From contig SVAS01000002.1 of assembly GCA_015059285.1 (NCBI GenBank), positions 2,572 to 66,571 on the forward strand: a stretch of 64,000 bases of DNA, read 5' to 3'. Every line of letters starts with the position of its first letter. Positions within the stretch are counted from its first letter, which is position 1. The DNA comes from Bacillota bacterium (lineage in GTDB: Bacteria > Bacillota_I > Bacilli_A > RF39 > UBA660). Below the pieces are notes generated by a model, which saw nothing but the letters and a program-made list of their open reading frames with translations, was not told the DNA's origin and made no database searches. Positions 57-11,567 of the stretch are shown here, piece after piece. Position numbers and translations under genes: made by a program.

Positions 57-1436
57 TTATGAAATTACAATTCTAAACGAATATTCACTATTTGAATCAC
101 CATTTCCTGTTGAAAAACTAAACATACCTGCTTTAGTTGTTGATTTAAAGTCTCCACCTCGTATAACCCAAGGACCACTTGTATTTGGGAAAATAGCCAA
201 GTCATTATACCATGAACTATAATAATCTGTACTATAACTAAAAGGCCCCATTTCTCCAGTAGCATCTCCTAGTATTCTTTTACTGTATTGCGTTAAATTG
301 GTAGAAGAATACTTGTTAATATATTTATCCTGTGGAAAAGTAGTAGTTGTAAATCCACTTAAATCATAAGCAGAAGTTGTTTCTTCTGAATAACCCATCA
401 CATATTCCCAGGCTCCACCACTCATATCAAATATTCCACTAATATTTCCAGTTGTACTTTGTTTATAAGTAGTAACTGTTCCATAAGCATTATGACAAGT
501 AGTACTATTTGCTTCATCCATAGAATTACTTCCACAACCTGTTTTATAATAGCTAGAATTATTTATAGCTACTTCATCACCTTTTCCATACATAGAATGC
601 GATAAATACGCTACTGCTCCCCATTCTGTATTTTTCATCAAATGTGAATTAACATCATTAGCTAGACTAAAAATATTTTCATCTGCATTCATATTAGTAA
701 CCATAGAGTGTATATTGCTTACTGACATCATTCTCCAAGCATAATTATTTGGCTTAATAATTATTTTATTTGTATCAATACTAGAAACTAATGCTTGTTC
801 TAAACTTGTAGCACCACTATATCCTGTTTCAAATTTTCCTACCCAAAATCCATTTAATTCTTCTGTTCCAAACGTAAATGCCGGATGTGTTAAATATTCC
901 TCTACTATTGTTGAGCTTGATTTTGTTGTATTTTTTGTTTCAAAAATAATATCAATACTATGAACTTTACTTACATCTTGAGTAGTAGAAGTATCAGTTG
1001 CTTCCGTATACCATAGTTTATATCTAAAACGAGGAACCCATACTAAATAAGTTAAAATATCTTCTTCACTTATTACAGTCCCAGCTGAAGCATTTTCATA
1101 ATTAGCCTTCGTATCATTAGTAACAGTAACTACATTAGCCCATTTTTTTTGACTATAATTATACCATTCTCTTGTTAAATCTGCTTTCTTAACTGTTCCA
1201 TTATTTTCAATAACAACAGGTATCATTCCTGATTTTATTTTTGGATCTGCACCATTTAATCTATCTTCTTTATATAAAGAATTCTCCATTTTGTTTATAA
1301 TATCATTTTTTATTTTGTCAAATGAGAACTTAGTTGTTCCTAAAATAGTTAAAATTCCCATAAAAAGAGTTACAAATAAAATTAATAATGAATATAATAC
1401 CCCTGAAATTGCGAACCCCTTATTATTCAGTTTCAT
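57..1436 (-). CDS. Secreted/membrane-anchored protein with pilin-like N-terminal hydrophobic segment (KGFAISGVLYSLLIL) and C-terminal FGE-sulfatase / C-type-lectin-like fold (GGAWEYV...VIRGGDF...SFRIV)
   Basis: ORF track. N-terminus resembles a class III (prepilin) signal but lacks Glu at +5. C-terminal motifs resemble the formylglycine-generating-enzyme-like lectin fold typical of DGR targets. No TR match found. Confidence 0.45.
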   Translation of the reverse strand: MKLNNKGFAISGVLYSLLILFVTLFMGILTILGTTKFSFDKIKNDIINKMENSLYKEDRLNGADPKIKSGMIPVVIENNGTVKKADLTREWYNYSQKKWANVVTVTNDTKANYENASAGTVISEEDILTYLVWVPRFRYKLWYTEATDTSTTQDVSKVHSIDIIFETKNTTKSSSTIVEEYLTHPAFTFGTEELNGFWVGKFETGYSGATSLEQALVSSIDTNKIIIKPNNYAWRMMSVSNIHSMVTNMNADENIFSLANDVNSHLMKNTEWGAVAYLSHSMYGKGDEVAINNSSYYKTGCGSNSMDEANSTTCHNAYGTVTTYKQSTTGNISGIFDMSGGAWEYVMGYSEETTSAYDLSGFTTTTFPQDKYINKYSSTNLTQYSKRILGDATGEMGPFSYSTDYYSSWYNDLAIFPNTSGPWVIRGGDFKSTTKAGMFSFSTGNGDSNSEYSFRIVIS

Positions 1437-2155: not shown

Positions 2156-2368
2156 TTACACTAAAGCAGTTTTTATTTCAACTACATTTTTTGCTTGTAA
2201 ACCTTTGTCTGTTCTAACTAATTCAAATTCTACGTATTGACCTTCAACTAACGTTTTATAGCCTTCTGATAGAATTGAAGAGTAGTGAATAAAAATATCT
2301 TCTCCTTCTTTATATTCAATGAATCCATAACCTTTTTCGTTATTGAACCATTTTACTTTTCCCTTCAT
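2156..2368 (-). CDS. Cold shock protein (CspA family)
   Basis: MKGKVKWFNNEKGYGFI... RNP motifs. Start moved to an internal ATG preceded by AGGGAGA; the upstream part of the track ORF is non-homologous. Confidence 0.85.
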   Translation of the reverse strand: MKGKVKWFNNEKGYGFIEYKEGEDIFIHYSSILSEGYKTLVEGQYVEFELVRTDKGLQAKNVVEIKTALV

Positions 2369-2536
2369 AGTCAAAAATCTCCCTTCTAGTAATTTGTTTA
2401 CAATACCAATATACCCCTTATTACCCTTACATTTCAAGAAATTAAAGCCATCAAAATTCGACAAAATGTTTTCTTTTGGAATATAGCGGGCAGATGTATT
2501 TTATAACAAACTACTCCCTATAGTTTTGTTTTTGTC

Positions 2537-2566
2537 TGAAACTGCCAATTATATGCTTGAAATCAT
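2537..2566 (+). promoter_or_regulatory. Candidate LytTR (AgrA-type) binding site: 9-bp direct repeats TGAAACTGC-N12-TGAAATCAT
   Basis: Two imperfect 9-mers (7/9 identical) spaced exactly 12 bp apart, upstream of agrB. This architecture matches LytTR regulators, but the distance to the -10 (about 95 bp) is longer than usual. Confidence 0.2.
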
Positions 2567-2655
2567 TATTTTTTCAATATCTATAATTTTATTTTTTGGA
2601 AATAAACTTAAAAATTCAGAACTTAACCTTTTTTTGTTTTTTTTATAAAAACGTT

Positions 2656-2664
2656 TGTTATAAT
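2656..2664 (+). promoter_or_regulatory. Extended -10 element (TGTTATAAT) of the agrB-agrD promoter
   Basis: TGnTATAAT about 27 bp upstream of the agrB ATG. AAAGGAG RBS at 2675-2681. Confidence 0.4.
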
Positions 2665-2690
2665 TTGTTCAGCATAAAGGAGCAGATATT

Positions 2691-3296
2691 ATGCGAGATG
2701 TAATTATTAACAATTCATTAAGTTTTATAAAAAAGAATAATCCAGATTTCTCTAATGAAAAACTTGCAGAAATAGAATATGGATTAGTATCTATATATCT
2801 TCTTATAAGTAAACTAATTATCATAATTATATTAGCTTATATACTAGGAATAGTTAAAGAAATGCTAATATTTTCATGTTTATATAATGTAATTAGAATA
2901 CCTTCTTTTGGACTACATGCTACCAAAAGTTGGATATGTTTATTAGTATCTAGCATTATGTTTTTAGGTCTTCCTATTCTTTGTAAATATATAGTTATTA
3001 TACCTATAATCAAATTTATTTTAGGTATGATAGTAACTTTATTTATTTTTAAAAATAGTCCTGCTGATACACATAAAAGACCTATTGTTAGTCCTATGAG
3101 AAGAAAAGTGTTTAAAACTATTTCAACTATAATTTCTATCATATTTGTAATAGTTTCACTTTACATAAAGAATAATTTTATAAGCAATAGTTTAATAATT
3201 TCATTAGTATTACAATCATTATTTATATCACCAACTGTTTATAAAATTTTTAAATTACCTTATAACAACTATAAAAATTACAACTTAGAAAACTAA
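2691..3296 (+). CDS. agrB: AgrB-like accessory gene regulator B (AgrD-processing membrane cysteine endopeptidase)
   Basis: 201 aa polytopic membrane protein. It carries the conserved RIPSFGLHATKSWIC His...Cys catalytic pair spaced 7 residues apart as in AgrB, and lies immediately upstream of an AgrD-like peptide gene. Confidence 0.75.
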   Translation: MRDVIINNSLSFIKKNNPDFSNEKLAEIEYGLVSIYLLISKLIIIIILAYILGIVKEMLIFSCLYNVIRIPSFGLHATKSWICLLVSSIMFLGLPILCKYIVIIPIIKFILGMIVTLFIFKNSPADTHKRPIVSPMRRKVFKTISTIISIIFVIVSLYIKNNFISNSLIISLVLQSLFISPTVYKIFKLPYNNYKNYNLEN

Positions 3297-3349
3297 TGAT
3301 GGTTTAAATTTAATTTAAACATAGATAAAAGAAAAAAGGAGGAAATATC

Positions 3350-3472
3350 ATGTCAAAATTATTTTCAAACATTTTAGCAGCTTTAGGATTAGGAGCTGCT
3401 GGTACAGGTAGTCAAGCTTGTTTTGTTTGGTTTGCTGATGAACCTGAATGTCCAAAAAGCTTAGTTAAATAA
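3350..3472 (+). CDS. agrD: AgrD autoinducing peptide precursor (MSKLFSNILAALGLGAAGTGSQACFVWFADEPECPKSLVK)
   Basis: 40-aa ORF not in the track. Strong RBS AAAAAGGAGG 7 nt upstream. N-terminal amphipathic leader, a central Cys-containing core (CFVWF) and the conserved acidic C-terminal DEPE-PK-L recognition tail of AgrD. Confidence 0.8.
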   Translation: MSKLFSNILAALGLGAAGTGSQACFVWFADEPECPKSLVK

Positions 3473-3482
3473 TTAAGCTATG

Positions 3483-3531
3483 AAAAAAGCATATAGACAT
3501 ATGTTAACCATATGTTTATATGCTTATTTTT
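3483..3531. terminator. Bidirectional rho-independent terminator between convergent agrD and agrC
   Basis: A-run, then 15-bp stem GCATATAGACATATG / CATATGTTTATATGC (one mismatch) with loop TTAAC, then T-run. The agrC stop codon lies within the 3' arm. Confidence 0.6.
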
Positions 3532-4817
3532 AATATTTGAATAAATACGTTATCATTAATCATTCTAACATTTTCAAGATTAGAATTTTTATTAATAATT
3601 TCTTTAACTAAAGCAAGTCCATAACCATGTTCATTTCCTTTAGTGGTATATTTTACCATATCAATTTTATCTAAATCAATAGAACCTTCAAATGTATTAG
3701 CTATTGATATGTGAAATTTATCATCCATCATATAAAGTTCTATGCTGAGACTACCACTTTTTATTTTTTTACACTCTTCAATAGCATTATCTAAAAACAC
3801 ACCTACAATTTTACAAATATCTAAAATAAGATTTTCATTTAAATCTACCAAATGAACACTTCTTATTTTTCTGTCTATTTTTAGTTCAAAAAGAATATCA
3901 TTATTTTTCATATATAAAAGTTTAGAATAAATTAACGCTCTTAAACCACCGGCTGGAATTTTAGAGGTTTCCATAATTAAATTTTCATCATCTTGATATT
4001 CATTCTTAACAATATTATCTATATATTTGCTAACATCGCCTTTGGTATCTTTACCAAGCATATTTCTAATCATTAATAATTGATTTTTATTTTCATGATT
4101 AGAAACTTTATATTTATCTAATATATCTTCATAAGATTTTAGAGTTTCTAAAGTATTATTATATTTAACAGACATCTTTAGGTAATTATTGTTTGTAGCC
4201 ATAGTTCTAATAACCATTATAAAGCAACCTATGGTTAAAACTGTACATACAAGTACAAAATTTACTAAGTCTGTTTTAAAATACAAACAATAAAATAACA
4301 TACTTGAGCAAAGAATTAACACAATCACAATAGTAAATATTTTAACCACTTTTTCATTTTGTGATATAGTTTTTAATTTTTTATATAATGAATATATTAT
4401 TTTCAATCTCCCAACAAATAACACTAAAAACGAAACCAGTAAATTAGCATATATTGTTCCAAAAAACACATCAATCAGTTCATTTTGTTTGTTGATATTT
4501 AATAATAATACAACCAAAACAACTACTATTGATTCTGCTAAAATATATAAAAATTGTGTTATTATTGAAATTAATACTGCATCTTTCCAATTTGTTTTAA
4601 AAATTATTTTTAAAGTTAATATATATAGTATTATAACCAATAATAAAGAAAGTATTTTATTATTAAAAAAGTAATTTATAATTATTAATCCTATTAAAAC
4701 TATACTAATTAAATATAATTTATAATCCTTGAAGTTCAAATGCTTTTTTAACAATTTAGACCATATATAAAAATTAGTTAACACAATTGCTGTAGCTCCT
4801 ATAATATGATTTAACAT
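3516..4817 (-). CDS. agrC: AgrC-like sensor histidine kinase (HPK10 family, GHKL ATPase)
   Basis: 433 aa. N-terminal half has 6-7 TM helices. C-terminal HATPase with GHGYGLALVKEII G2 box. Adjacent and co-oriented with a LytTR response regulator. Confidence 0.8.
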   Translation of the reverse strand: MLNHIIGATAIVLTNFYIWSKLLKKHLNFKDYKLYLISIVLIGLIIINYFFNNKILSLLLVIILYILTLKIIFKTNWKDAVLISIITQFLYILAESIVVVLVVLLLNINKQNELIDVFFGTIYANLLVSFLVLFVGRLKIIYSLYKKLKTISQNEKVVKIFTIVIVLILCSSMLFYCLYFKTDLVNFVLVCTVLTIGCFIMVIRTMATNNNYLKMSVKYNNTLETLKSYEDILDKYKVSNHENKNQLLMIRNMLGKDTKGDVSKYIDNIVKNEYQDDENLIMETSKIPAGGLRALIYSKLLYMKNNDILFELKIDRKIRSVHLVDLNENLILDICKIVGVFLDNAIEECKKIKSGSLSIELYMMDDKFHISIANTFEGSIDLDKIDMVKYTTKGNEHGYGLALVKEIINKNSNLENVRMINDNVFIQILKISI

Positions 4818-5521
4818 TTACTCTTCAACTCCTTTTTATATTTATCAGATAGTAAGTCAATTGTAAGACCACTATCAAATAAAATCTTTTTTTTCATACT
4901 ATTAATAATCGCAACTCTTTCTTTATTTACAATGCAAGCTCTATGTGTTTGAACAAAACGTTCATCTAACATTGAAGATAATTCTAATAATGTTTTATAA
5001 GTTTTATATTCGTTTTTTTCAGTTTTAATAATACTTTTTCTTTCAATACTATCTCTTGTTATATATAAAATATCATTTAATGAAATATTATATATAACAC
5101 CTCTTTCTTCAAAATGTAATTTAGTTTGAATATTTAATATTTGTAAGGCTTTTAAAATAGATTTTTTCAATCTTTCATCAGAGTTTTCAAATTTATTAAT
5201 AAATGATAAAAACCATAGTTCTTTTTTCAAAACAGCAGGCCCAAGTTCATCATGACCTGTCATAAAAATAATAATACTTTCCATATCTTTTTCTCGTATA
5301 ACTCTAGCTATATCAATTCCAGATCTAGAAGGGGTTTCAATATCTAAAATATATATTCTAATACATTCTTTATTATTAATTAGTTTAATAAATTCATCAT
5401 TGTAATCATAAAAAGAAATTGTTTTATAAATAATTTTATTTTTCATCATAATATCATCTATTGTTTTTTCTACTTTTTCTGTAATTATTTTATCATCATC
5501 ACATATTATAAACTCTAGCAT
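4811..5521 (-). CDS. agrA: AgrA-like LytTR-family response regulator
   Basis: 236 aa. N-terminal receiver (IICDDD...) and C-terminal LytTR DNA-binding domain (FVQTHRACIVN). 7-nt overlap with agrC. Confidence 0.8.
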   Translation of the reverse strand: MLEFIICDDDKIITEKVEKTIDDIMMKNKIIYKTISFYDYNDEFIKLINNKECIRIYILDIETPSRSGIDIARVIREKDMESIIIFMTGHDELGPAVLKKELWFLSFINKFENSDERLKKSILKALQILNIQTKLHFEERGVIYNISLNDILYITRDSIERKSIIKTEKNEYKTYKTLLELSSMLDERFVQTHRACIVNKERVAIINSMKKKILFDSGLTIDLLSDKYKKELKSKC

Positions 5522-5647
5522 AATGAATTCACCTCACTAACAAACGGTTGCTATCAGTTAATTATCTATCGTATAAAATATTAGCATAAAAATGATGAAA
5601 AAGCAATGAATTTATAATAAGTTTATATAAAAAACAAAAGATAAATT

Positions 5648-6385
5648 TTATCTTTTGTTTGTTTTTTCCTCATACCAATTTTTAATCTTAGACCAACCAT
5701 TACTTGCAGCATCTTGAATTTGATTAGTAGCATCCTTAGTACTTTCTTTTATATCTTGTGTTACCTCTTTAGTTTTATCTTTTACGTCTTGATATTTATC
5801 ACCATATTGTTCAAGTAATTTATCGTCTGCATAATTTAAACCTTCTTGAAGTTTTGTCTTAACATAATCATATCCTTGCGTAAATTTTTCTTTAATAGTT
5901 TCTTTATAACCAGGAATTTTACTTTCTACTTTATTATCAATTCTAGATACTATAGCCATTATTTTATTTTTAGCATTATCACTTAATTGTTCAAAAGTTA
6001 CACCTTTAATTTCAGTTCCATAAAAAATAAAATCAATCCCTGTTATAGCTATCTCTTTAGCTTTTTCTTTAAATTTAGAAAAACTATCTTCATTAATTGC
6101 TTTGTCAACTTCTTGTTCTAGGTTTTCAAAATATGAAACAATTTCTATTTCTTTATCATCATTAATGATAACATTGCTATTTACATTTGCATTACTTTTT
6201 GGAGTTTGGGATTGGTTATTTTTTGAATTTGTTACTTTTTCTTCTTGATAATTACTACTTTGTTCATATACTATTTTTTTAGTATCATCATTTATAGTGG
6301 TTTTTTTTTGACACCCACTCACTGAAACTAACACAAAACCTGCACATATAACTGCCACTATTTTATTAATATTTATGTATTTCAT
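5648..6385 (-). CDS. Lipoprotein of unknown function (lipobox VSGC)
   Basis: Signal peptide MKYININKIVAVICAGFVLVSVSGC followed by a low-complexity Asn/Ser-rich linker and a Lys/Glu-rich helical domain. Confidence 0.5.
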   Translation of the reverse strand: MKYININKIVAVICAGFVLVSVSGCQKKTTINDDTKKIVYEQSSNYQEEKVTNSKNNQSQTPKSNANVNSNVIINDDKEIEIVSYFENLEQEVDKAINEDSFSKFKEKAKEIAITGIDFIFYGTEIKGVTFEQLSDNAKNKIMAIVSRIDNKVESKIPGYKETIKEKFTQGYDYVKTKLQEGLNYADDKLLEQYGDKYQDVKDKTKEVTQDIKESTKDATNQIQDAASNGWSKIKNWYEEKTNKR

Positions 6386-6444
6386 AAAAATCACCTCTTA
6401 AGTAATCAACTATTATAAAGTTTTACTTTATTTTTGTCAAAATA

Positions 6445-9890: not shown

Positions 9891-11567
9891 TTATAGATTT
9901 GATTTTTTTTGATATTTTTTTACATTTTTGTCATAAGGATTTCTTGATAAATTTCTATTCTCATACTTAAAATTTATTTCTGGTATAACCTCATATTTGA
10001 ATTTAATATTTATATTTCTATTTTCATCTATTACAATTTTATCTATTAATGCATCAATTAGTTCTTTTTTGGGTTTATTTAAATCTAATAATTTTTTGAT
10101 TTTTTTAGTATAATCTGGCAAAATATTTGCTTTATTTTTTATGTTTTCAATTTTATTCTTTTCTGTTTCAATACTATTATTAATTTTCTTTAATTTCTTT
10201 TCTGATTGTACAGATAGTTCCTTATAAAGTTCAGCTGTTATTATTCCATCACATCTATCATTATATAAATTAGATAATCTATTAATTATTTGTTCTTTTT
10301 CTAAAGTTAATTTATCAATAATTTTATCAATACTTTCTGTTTCTTTATGTATATTTTTAACAACTTCTCTATTTAATTCTTGCAAATCTAATTCATTAAT
10401 AAATATAGATACAGCTGATTCAAATTGTTCTAATAATTGTTGTTCTAAATAATCATATGGATAAAAATGAGAAGAACATCTACCCCTTTTTGGATCTCTA
10501 GAGTATCTATTACAATTAATTGACCAGTAATCAAGTTTCTTTCTATAATAAACTGATAATCTATTACCACACTCTTTGCAATATATTTTTCCTTCAAATA
10601 TTCTTTTTGGTCTAGTCGTCTTTAAAGCATAATTTCTAGAATGTCTATTCTTTAAAGTTTGTACATATTCAAATGTTTTTTTATCTACTAATGGTTCGTG
10701 AGTATTTTCTACTATTATCCATAAGCTTTTATCTAATGTTATTTTCTTCTTTGATTTATAATTAACTTTTGATTGAGTGTGTTGTACCATATCACCTGTA
10801 TAAATTCTATTTGTAAGAATCTTTTTTACTGAAGATATATTCCACTCATCTCTAATAATTATTCTTGAAGAAAATTTAATATTCTTATATTGACTTGGAG
10901 TTGGTATATTTTCATTATTAAGTCTAGTTGCTATTTCTGTAGGACCAATACCATCTACTCGCCATTTAAATATTTTTTTTACTGCAGGAGCTGTTTTAGG
11001 ATCTGGTATTAAATGTCCCTTATCTTCTGGATCTCTCATATATCCATAACTCGGTTTACTACCTATAAATTTTCCATTACGTCTCTTGTCATTAAGTACA
11101 TTTTTTATCTTAATAGAATTTTGTTTACTATAATAATCATTACAAGCAATAATAAATGTTGATGAATCATTGCTTGCTTGATTTTTAAAACTATCGTATG
11201 ATTCTAGAATTGAAATAAATCTAATACTGTTTTCTGGAAAAAATGTTTCTATGTAATATCCTGTCATAACATGATCTCTACCAAATCTTGATAAATCTTT
11301 AACTATCACACAATTAATTTTTTTCTTTTTAATATCTTCTAACATTTTTTGAAATCCGGGTCTATCAAAATTTGTTCCTGAATATCCATCATCAACATAT
11401 TCTCCAGATAAATTAAAATTATTATTTTTAACATAACTTTTTAATAATTCTTTTTGATTAATAACACTCTCACTATCAGATTCATATTTTTTATCTTTAT
11501 CTTCTTGAGATAACCTAATATATATTCCTACATTAAATTCTTGTTCAATCAAGTAATTATTGTACAT
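9891..11567 (-). CDS. Large serine recombinase (resolvase/invertase catalytic domain + recombinase domain + zinc ribbon/coiled coil)
   Basis: 558 aa. N-terminal VGIYIRLSQEDKD with catalytic Ser, ...VIVKDLSRFGRD. The large C-terminal extension with Cys cluster (CKECGNRL...CNRY...C) and coiled coil is typical of SpoIVCA/phiC31-type integrases. Confidence 0.85.
   Translation of the reverse strand: MYNNYLIEQEFNVGIYIRLSQEDKDKKYESDSESVINQKELLKSYVKNNNFNLSGEYVDDGYSGTNFDRPGFQKMLEDIKKKKINCVIVKDLSRFGRDHVMTGYYIETFFPENSIRFISILESYDSFKNQASNDSSTFIIACNDYYSKQNSIKIKNVLNDKRRNGKFIGSKPSYGYMRDPEDKGHLIPDPKTAPAVKKIFKWRVDGIGPTEIATRLNNENIPTPSQYKNIKFSSRIIIRDEWNISSVKKILTNRIYTGDMVQHTQSKVNYKSKKKITLDKSLWIIVENTHEPLVDKKTFEYVQTLKNRHSRNYALKTTRPKRIFEGKIYCKECGNRLSVYYRKKLDYWSINCNRYSRDPKRGRCSSHFYPYDYLEQQLLEQFESAVSIFINELDLQELNREVVKNIHKETESIDKIIDKLTLEKEQIINRLSNLYNDRCDGIITAELYKELSVQSEKKLKKINNSIETEKNKIENIKNKANILPDYTKKIKKLLDLNKPKKELIDALIDKIVIDENRNINIKFKYEVIPEINFKYENRNLSRNPYDKNVKKYQKKSNL

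Follow-up and report, generated by a model that had tools for sequence, protein, structure and literature searches.

An agr-type quorum-sensing locus of an uncultured gut bacterium with a small genome, and a direct-repeat dyad at the promoter of its divergent csp gene

Described systems and the locus compared

Separate agrBD and agrCA operons have been published for Clostridium acetobutylicum (PMC10301443, PMC12312760), in which the agr system consists of four components and has no RNAIII, and in which the AgrD precursor carries Cys and five residues before a follower of the form x-E-P-x-x-P-x-x-L (PMC10301443, PMC12312760, PMC8251862). The locus described here, found in a stretch of 64,000 nucleotides (the whole of which we call the window), is alike in all these respects. 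It differs from that of C. acetobutylicum in that its two units are convergent and have one terminator in common, in that no LanM-like gene (homologue of CA_C0082) adjoins the four agr genes, on the side of agrCA or on the other, in the short leader (23 residues) of its AgrD with an invariant GSQA end, in its putative direct output, which is a csp gene, and in its host, an uncultured small-genome lineage of gut Bacilli and not a Clostridium.

With the agrBDCA/RNAIII system of Staphylococcus aureus, the window shares an AgrB of the His/Cys peptidase type, an AgrC kinase of the HPK10 type, an AgrA composed of receiver and LytTR domains, an AgrD follower of the form D-E-x-E-x-P-K-x-L next to a hypervariable core of the autoinducing peptide (AIP), and, between divergent genes, two 9-bp direct repeats with 12 bp between them. 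In contrast to S. aureus, and in agreement with the initial annotation of this DNA, agr is not one operon in the window and agrBD and agrCA form separate convergent units; the predicted ring has six residues instead of five, the divergent gene encodes a cold-shock protein and not RNAIII, the half-site sequence is different and the agr promoters lack a box. Protein identity to S. aureus is also low, with NCBIfam equivalog scores of 47 bits for AgrA and 51 bits for AgrC against cutoffs of 400 and 500. ComDE of Streptococcus pneumoniae is likewise a LytTR two-component system, in which ComE binds a pair of direct repeats that precede promoters. The solved structures closest to the regulator in the window are ComE (4CBV, E=9e-9) and the AgrA LytTR domain (3BS1, 8e-4), and by sequence this regulator is no nearer to AgrA than to ComE. 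However, the signal exported by ComAB is ComC, a linear peptide of the double-glycine type, whereas the window has an AgrB/AgrD pair, which argues for a signal chemistry of the agr type, unlike that of ComDE.

Gene content, arrangement and transcription units

To judge by homology, the window holds a complete system for peptide quorum sensing of the familiar agr type, as the initial annotation had claimed. An ORF check found all four agr genes where that annotation had placed them (Table 1), and their products all match family HMMs. AgrB matches PF04647, the model on which its assignment had been staked, at E=1.3e-31 (109.8 bits; cutoff 23); it has 1651 homologues at E<=1e-5, and His76 and Cys83 are invariant throughout a set of 28 homologues. 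The spacing of 7 between these residues equals that between H77 and C84 in S. aureus AgrB. A sequence search of the PDB with AgrB gave no match. AgrD scores 28 bits with TIGR04223, over the cutoff of 19, and agrD starts 54 nt past agrB with a strong AAGGAGG ribosome-binding site shortly upstream of its ATG. In AgrC, about 6-7 hydrophobic segments within residues 1-205, spread over residues 29-203, accompany a HATPase_c_5 domain (E=3.3e-14); the protein matches the AgrC structures 4BXI and 6E52 in the PDB at 1e-6 and 1e-5, respectively, and the NCBIfam AgrC model at 1.2e-13 over residues 16-427, which is a weak match under the equivalog cutoff. AgrA contains Response_reg and LytTR domains (E=2.4e-15), and agrA overlaps agrC by 7 nt. 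As in other members of these families, the membrane kinase AgrC would sense the peptide and then phosphorylate the LytTR regulator AgrA.

Table 1. Features of the agr locus and the divergent csp gene (window coordinates)
Feature	Position	Strand	Description
csp	2156..2368	-	70-aa cold-shock-domain protein, divergent from agrB; putative direct target; Pfam CSD E=2.6e-26
csp promoter -10 region	2498..2508	-	TGtTATAAAAT, read as TATAAA or TAAAAT
Direct-repeat dyad, putative AgrA/LytTR box	2530..2563	+	half-sites TGTCTGAAA (2533..2541) and TGCTTGAAA (2554..2562)
Proximal agrBD promoter, extended -10	2656..2664	+	TGTTATAAT; 27 nt before agrB ATG; read from sequence
agrB	2691..3296	+	201 aa; contains GLHATKSWIC; putative membrane peptidase cleaving the AgrD follower and cyclising the peptide
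agrD	3350..3472	+	40-aa AIP precursor; predicted mature core Cys24-Ala29 (CFVWFA) encoded at 3419..3436
Bidirectional intrinsic terminator common to agrBD and agrCA	3487..3525		17-bp stem; overlaps agrC stop codon
agrC	3516..4817	-	433 aa; polytopic sensor histidine kinase (HPK10, GHKL); candidate phospho-acceptor His241
agrA	4811..5521	-	236 aa; receiver + LytTR response regulator; candidate phospho-acceptor Asp60
agrCA promoter	5578..5606	-	TTGCTT, 17-nt spacer, TGCTAATAT (extended -10); read from sequence

The agrBD (plus strand) and agrCA (minus strand) units meet at one strong hairpin, and the shared bidirectional terminator proposed earlier is well supported: the stem is preceded by an A-run and followed by a T-run, which yields a hairpin plus U-run on either strand, and its folding energy is -22.8 kcal/mol for the plus strand and -18.6 kcal/mol for the minus strand (z = -6.8 and -6.2). 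No second terminator-like site was found in 2300..5800. The convergent arrangement highlighted in the initial annotation is thus real but not special to this locus, since it occurs in 65 of the 67 related loci long enough to judge, all of them from uncultured gut 'Bacilli/Tenericutes' genomes, and is the norm across the lineage. An identical locus is present in 13 metagenome contigs. The host, a relative of 'Tenericutes-like' Bacilli, has DNA low in GC (~25%) and a reduced genome, a related circular MAG being 1.26 Mb in size; one relative is filed by NCBI under Mycoplasmatota incertae sedis. On the agrB side the locus is flanked by csp and HPF and on the agrA side by an HD_3 protein and a 248-aa putative lipoprotein, which had no match in Pfam. 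In the literature searched we found no report of agr in RF39/RFN20-type bacteria.

Each unit appears to have its own extended -10 promoter. In 56 of 77 loci the combination of TGn and a -10 hexamer is found between -70 and -15 relative to the agrB ATG, compared with 19% of random windows, and TATGGTA-type extended -10 words are ~10-fold enriched upstream of agrA in relatives. In the window, the dyad described below is absent from both of these positions: the best score is 0.8 bits at the proximal agrB promoter and -5.4 bits upstream of agrA. AgrA boxes at the agr promoters, the mark of autoinduction, are common in characterised agr systems and not family-defining; they are lacking here and occur in some relatives. 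We infer that agrBD and agrCA would be two transcription units that end at one bidirectional terminator, with no positive feedback evident in the window though it is probably present in some relatives.

The AgrD precursor and the predicted peptide

AgrD follows the family pattern GSQAC-x5-DEPECPKSLIK, in which near-invariant flanks enclose exactly five hydrophobic, hypervariable positions after the Cys (2.35-3.2 bits each), and 66 distinct cores occur among 72 loci. Such a pattern is the mark that selection leaves on a mature peptide which determines specificity. In the window the leader ends in the invariant GSQA and the follower reads DEPECPKSLVK. The C. acetobutylicum precursor reads ...GKCVLVTL|YEPKMPEEL and gives rise to a detected AIP, [CVLVTL] (PMC10301443 supplement, PMC12312760, PMC8251862), and alignment of YEPKMPEEL with DEPECPKSL places the cut before Asp30. 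Both precursors then have Cys and five residues before an x-E-P follower (C-FVWFA-DEPECP and C-VLVTL-YEPKMP), which predicts a six-membered and probably tail-less ring. By this analogy CFVWFA is the most likely AIP ring; alternatively, the follower may begin with Ala29 and the ring be a five-membered CFVWF, and the predicted ring size depends on alignment to few characterised precursors. The computed [M+H]+ values for the six-membered ring are 754.338 without a tail, 825.375 with an A-tail, 953.434 with a QA-tail and 1040.466 with an SQA-tail, and that for the five-membered CFVWF ring is 683.301. The initial annotation had described the core as hydrophobic and aromatic, which holds, and also as novel, which needs tempering: the family is hypervariable and has at least 66 different cores, of which this is one, and the predicted six-membered ring is of a known type (PMC8251862).

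From what is known of the family, AgrB would use His76 and Cys83 to remove the follower from AgrD and would then join Cys24 to the new C-terminus at Ala29 as a thiolactone, producing a six-residue macrocycle. Were the leader fully removed, the free amine may allow the thiolactone to convert into a peptide cyclised head to tail, a rearrangement demonstrated for tail-less AIPs of clostridia.

Since agr systems are well known, the locus itself is unsurprising and its value is practical and ecological. For a gut lineage without cultured members it provides a concrete candidate signal, cyclo/thiolactone-CFVWFA, that can be synthesised, and in this AgrD family the invariant processing motifs are set off with unusual clarity from a hypervariable core of five residues, which makes AIP prediction straightforward across some 70 species. 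If the prediction is true, the 66 cores in 72 species amount to a lineage-wide set of private chemical channels.

The direct-repeat dyad, the csp gene and alternative readings

The initial annotation had placed candidate LytTR direct repeats upstream of agrB. A LytTR-style site is indeed present there, but the conserved register lies 4 nt to the left of the one proposed, whose repeats (TGAAACTGC and TGAAATCAT) agree at just 5/9, and the geometry of the site fits the csp promoter. In the conserved register the half-sites are 8/9 identical, with a 12-bp spacer and a 21-bp period. With a 34-nt weight matrix built from 77 related loci, the window dyad scored 30.3 bits and the runner-up on both strands of the 64 kb scored 13.1 bits; shuffled loci (684 kb) contained one match at >=16 bits, and the total for the motif search was 1474 bits compared to about 640 in shuffles. 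The architecture is that of LytTR-regulated promoters, namely two ~9-bp direct repeats ~12 bp apart that abut the -35 region, with the proximal half-site ending ~29 nt before the conserved -10. The likeness is limited to architecture, since the half-site, TGyyTrAA, differs from the staphylococcal LytTR consensus, (TA)(AC)(CA)GTTN(AG)(TG) (PMC8826819).

Several lines of comparative evidence connect the dyad with csp. In 59 of 71 loci the csp strand has a hexamer matching TATAAT at >=5/6 positions at a distance of 26-27 nt from the edge of the dyad (0-8 loci at each other offset), and this fixed distance on the opposite strand indicates that the dyad belongs to the divergent csp promoter, in which a -35 is not recognisable in the window. 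In 11 loci with a second csp gene that does not adjoin agrB, that copy has no dyad (<=6.9 bits) and the adjacent copy has one in 10 of the 11. An Rfam search of the csp-agrB intergenic region (E<=1) found no cspA thermoregulator or other known RNA. The same dyad also occurs at agr promoters of some relatives, which makes AgrA its likely binder: five loci carry it with the same geometry upstream of agrA, between feoB and agrA and with no csp nearby, and 15 of 76 carry it upstream of the proximal agrB promoter at >=12 bits, against 0.2% of control windows, an enrichment of ~100-fold. Three loci have an agrA-upstream dyad in the opposite orientation, so that rules of orientation are not strict, and the dyad may also affect agrBD. 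From this comparative footprinting, phosphorylated AgrA most likely binds the dyad next to the -35 position of csp, which would make a cold-shock-domain RNA-binding protein the density-dependent output, in the position that RNAIII/P3 holds in S. aureus.

Overall, we favour a functional agr system with separate agrBD and agrCA units, phosphorylated AgrA acting on the csp dyad as output and no evident agr feedback, a reading deduced from sequence comparison to which we give a probability of about 0.8; the role of csp as agr output is, by itself, speculative. Whether it extends to the lineage as a whole is a more tentative matter, and we would put at slightly short of an even chance the wider proposal that divergent csp is the conserved direct output of agr in this widespread lineage, in place of a regulatory RNA or toxins, that the agr operons of the window are constitutive and free of positive feedback and that each species has a private six-residue cyclic peptide. 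If the csp link is true, it represents a new type of agr output with a simple regulon, in which one dyad serves one gene. With constitutive agr operons, density sensing in the organism of the window would run without positive feedback. In the literature searched there was no report of direct control of csp by AgrA. Separately, CspC and FeoB are over-produced in an agrA mutant of S. lugdunensis (PMC8826819), a coincidence worth remembering and not evidence.

The wiring implied in the initial annotation was different: the repeats would be the AgrA box of an autoinduced, P2-like agrBD promoter with positive feedback, acting through TTGAAA (2557..2562), a 19-nt spacer and TATAAT (2582..2587) and leaving a ~100-nt leader before agrB. 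Both hexamers exist in the window and the long spacer fits an activator-dependent promoter; moreover, agr systems that have been characterised autoinduce agrBD as a rule, a dyad of >=8 bits is present at the proximal agrB promoter in about a third of the relatives (26/76), and sense-oriented dyads upstream of agrA in L052, L064 and L021 demonstrate that the box can face the gene. We nevertheless regard this wiring as unlikely, though not negligibly so, because across 72 loci no -10 offset is preferred on the agrB side (<=9 loci per offset), in marked contrast to the csp side, because the half-site centre lies ~24 nt from TATAAT, as opposed to the ~33 nt conserved at the promoters of csp and agrA, and because the extended -10 of agrB itself lies ~95 nt further downstream. 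It is quite unlikely, in turn, that the dyad is not an AgrA site at all and belongs to some other regulator or is intrinsic to the csp promoter, its closeness to agr being inherited synteny. In 75 of 76 related loci less than 700 nt separate agrB from a divergent csp, an adjacency so general that co-location by itself proves nothing; the half-site is unlike known LytTR consensus sequences, and co-variation of half-sites between csp-side and agr-side dyads of one genome was not significant (P=0.18). Against this stand the dyads at the canonical distance upstream of agrA where csp is absent, the enrichment at the proximal agrB promoter and the lack of a dyad at csp paralogues away from agrB; furthermore, two 9-mers with a 12-bp spacer are a LytTR hallmark, and the cluster encodes no DNA-binding regulator but AgrA.

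A decaying or orphan system that has ceased to signal would be in keeping with the reduced host genome and with the autoinduction box not being visible at agrBD or agrCA in the window, and we judge this reading very improbable: none of the four ORFs is disrupted, the catalytic and phospho-acceptor residues are present, as are ribosome-binding sites, promoters and terminator, and the diversification of the AgrD core between flanks that do not vary over 72 species requires continued selection. Furthermore, the identical AIP core is found in a sister lineage (L088 and L089) whose entire locus has 86% nucleotide identity to that of the window. These two loci were also considered as a case of S. 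aureus-style allelic specificity groups within species, for which there was no support: their divergence is not concentrated in AgrB-C/AgrD/AgrC-N, and their AgrB variants, 89% identical, belong to the sister lineage.

The agr genes and their arrangement

All four genes of the agr locus lie where the initial annotation had placed them, and AgrB matched PF04647, the family against which it was to be checked. His76 and Cys83 of AgrB (within GLHATKSWIC) were invariant in the 28 homologues compared, and the reading frames of agrA and agrC share 7 nt. By its components and inferred mechanism, the locus is an agr system; the name 'AgrA' for its regulator is based on genomic context, and the protein is about equally close to the solved structures of ComE (4CBV; 9e-9) and AgrA (8e-4). 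The proposed bidirectional terminator, the sole terminator-like site of the agr region, was confirmed as a hairpin of high predicted stability on either strand (-22.8 and -18.6 kcal/mol; z-scores -6.8 and -6.2), and, since an A-run lies 5' and a T-run 3' of it, termination is expected in both directions.

Coordinates of the agr genes and associated regulatory features in the window
Feature	Position	Strand	Details
csp promoter -10	2498..2508	-	without -35
dyad	2530..2563		30.3 bits, highest-scoring site of all
agrBD extended -10	2656..2664	+	TGTTATAAT
agrB	2691..3296	+	PF04647, E=1.3e-31
agrD	3350..3472	+	MSKLFSNILAALGLGAAGTGSQACFVWFADEPECPKSLVK, 40 aa; NCBIfam TIGR04223, 28 bits (cutoff 19)
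17-bp hairpin terminator	3487..3525	both	between 3' ends of agrBD and agrCA
agrC	3516..4817	-	HATPase_c_5 GHKL domain, 3.3e-14
agrA	4811..5521	-	receiver and LytTR domains, 2.4e-15
agrCA promoter	5606..5578	-	TTGCTT, 17-nt spacer, TGCTAATAT

The window has a GC content of ~25%, and 13 metagenome contigs carry the identical agr locus; gene callers predicted the 40-aa agrD ORF on all six such contigs among the matches listed. AgrB had 1651 homologues at E<=1e-5, nearly all unnamed metagenome proteins, and a scan of species-representative genomes gave 207 related loci. The best 80 of these 207, which were used here, all come from MAGs of uncultured gut bacteria under the labels Bacilli, Tenericutes, Mollicutes or Erysipelotrichaceae (rabbit, ruminants, chicken, mouse and humans are among the hosts), with one from a circular 1.26-Mb genome and one from 'Candidatus Faecisoma merdavium', placed by NCBI in Mycoplasmatota incertae sedis. 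The convergent layout of agrBD and agrCA, previously noted as different from the staphylococcal operon, is present but not special: agrC lies downstream of agrBD on the opposite strand in 65 of 67 related loci with enough sequence (3' ends <150 nt apart in 57 of those 65), and convergence is thus the norm of the lineage. Separate agrBD and agrCA operons have already been described in C. acetobutylicum and relatives (PMC10301443; PMC12312760), from which the window locus departs by the small variation of convergent orientation with a shared terminator. The C. acetobutylicum type is also the closest design overall, with split operons, a predicted six-membered ring and no RNAIII in common, although the LanM-like neighbour of that group is missing here. 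The locus is ordinary in kind, a new member of a known family in an uncultured lineage.

Two variants were seen among the relatives. Only in the circular MAG (OZ006994.1; L060:8453-10535) do agrA and agrC share the strand of agrBD, ~2.9 kb downstream of it. The closest species-representative locus (CANSFI010000012.1; L002:5845-8494) has two tandem full-length agrC paralogues, both of 433 aa, in the interval from agrD to agrA, and loci L004 and L026 have a comparable gap (about 1.4-1.6 kb). Such an arrangement suggests two receptors per one agrBD.

AgrD and the predicted signal

Among the AgrD precursors of 72 loci, a nearly invariant G-S-Q-A-C is followed by a stretch of exactly five residues that are hypervariable and hydrophobic or aromatic (entropy 2.35-3.2 bits), and then by a nearly invariant follower, D-E-P-E-C-P-K-S-L-I-K. 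The CFVWFA core, earlier put forward as a novel AIP, is indeed restricted among these loci to the window organism and a sister lineage (86% nucleotide identity), but is one of 66 distinct Cys+5 cores. The C. acetobutylicum precursor (...GKCVLVTL|YEPKMPEEL) yields a detected AIP that is six-membered and tail-less, [CVLVTL] (PMC10301443 supplement; PMC12312760; PMC8251862). Because alignment of the followers puts the AgrB cut before Asp30, and because the fifth position varies as much as the other four, the AIP is probably a six-membered ring, CFVWFA, and not CFVWF. In the absence of an exocyclic tail, the thiolactone would be expected to convert by S-to-N acyl shift into a homodetic cyclopeptide (PMC8251862).

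The direct-repeat dyad and the promoter it probably serves

Motif discovery in 77 agrB-upstream regions returned a dyad, TTTTG[TC]nT[GA]AA, N13, TG[TC]nT[GA]AA, with a 21-bp period (1474 bits in total against ~640 in shuffled sets); the second-best match across the 64 kb scored 13.1 bits. The candidate LytTR repeats annotated upstream of agrB are thus real, two 9-mers 12 bp apart as in LytTR architecture, but the conserved register, with half-sites TGTCTGAAA and TGCTTGAAA, lies 4 nt to the left. They probably serve the csp promoter rather than that of agrB. Across related loci no preferred -10 position was found on the agrB side, whereas in 59/71 loci the csp strand has a TAAAAT or TGnTATAAT box exactly 26-27 nt away from the edge of the dyad. 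Since a divergent cold-shock gene is also next in 75/76 loci (CSD match 2.6e-26 in the window), the dyad is positioned as an activator site of the csp promoter. On balance we favour csp as a direct quorum-sensing output, and the one lead beyond the ordinary is this conserved, inferred dyad-csp promoter.

We put the probability that the dyad is an AgrA box at roughly 0.7. In a clade of five loci (L018:7873-7906 and the corresponding position in L017, L035, L066 and L071) the dyad lies between feoB, a ferrous iron transporter gene, and agrA, with unchanged spacing to a TGGTATAAT box, where it would drive agrCA. A second, inverted dyad stands at the canonical distance from the proximal agrB extended -10 in 15/76 loci (at least 12 bits; control 0.2%). 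Where a second csp paralogue lies away from agrB (11 loci), that paralogue is without a dyad, while the agrB-adjacent copy has one in 10/11. Together these observations tie the dyad to agr and not to csp as such. Three others weaken this reading: the half-site departs from the consensus of staphylococci (PMC8826819), co-variation of dyads within genomes was not significant, and in three loci the box upstream of agrA has the other orientation. By coincidence, an S. lugdunensis agrA mutant is reported to over-produce both FeoB and CspC (PMC8826819). The circular MAG OZ006994.1 has an extra dyad (19.8 bits) directly after agrC, whose target would lie outside the sequence of that locus.

Positive feedback is typical of characterised agr systems and is apparently present in some relatives. 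It is not visible in the window, as neither agr promoter has a dyad (best score 0.8 bits upstream of the agrBD extended -10, -5.4 bits at the agrCA promoter). A TTGAAA, 19-nt spacer, TATAAT promoter facing agrB (2557..2587) might still provide it, but its distance to the dyad is non-conserved. A near-consensus sigma-70 promoter facing csp (2548-2577, minus strand; TTGAAA, 18-nt spacer, TATAAT; 11/12 matches) overlaps the dyad, binding to which could occlude it; this promoter is not obviously conserved in other loci. The csp leader (2369-2497, minus strand; ~125 nt) matched no Rfam family and contains a motif, TTTGTCGAA(A/T)TTTG, that is conserved in many loci, often duplicated, and may be a cold-box-like autoregulatory element.

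Neighbourhood of the locus

Directly upstream of agrA, and in the same orientation, is the gene of a predicted 248-aa lipoprotein (5648-6394, minus strand; signal ...VLVSVSGC) with no Pfam match, kept at this position in close relatives. A large serine recombinase of 558 aa (9891-11567, minus strand; Resolvase, Recombinase and Zn_ribbon_recom domains), 4.4 kb from agrA, is possibly the boundary of an integrated element. A 459-aa protein without a Pfam match (57-1436, minus strand), whose N-terminus resembles a prepilin/pseudopilin signal (MKLNNKGFAISGVLYSLLILFV...), adjoins secA in the longer contig L081. An S10-Clostridia ribosomal protein leader (RF03136; 53672-53779, minus strand; 35.7 bits, barely over the gathering score) precedes the ribosomal protein cluster, which is consistent with a Firmicutes-type chromosome.
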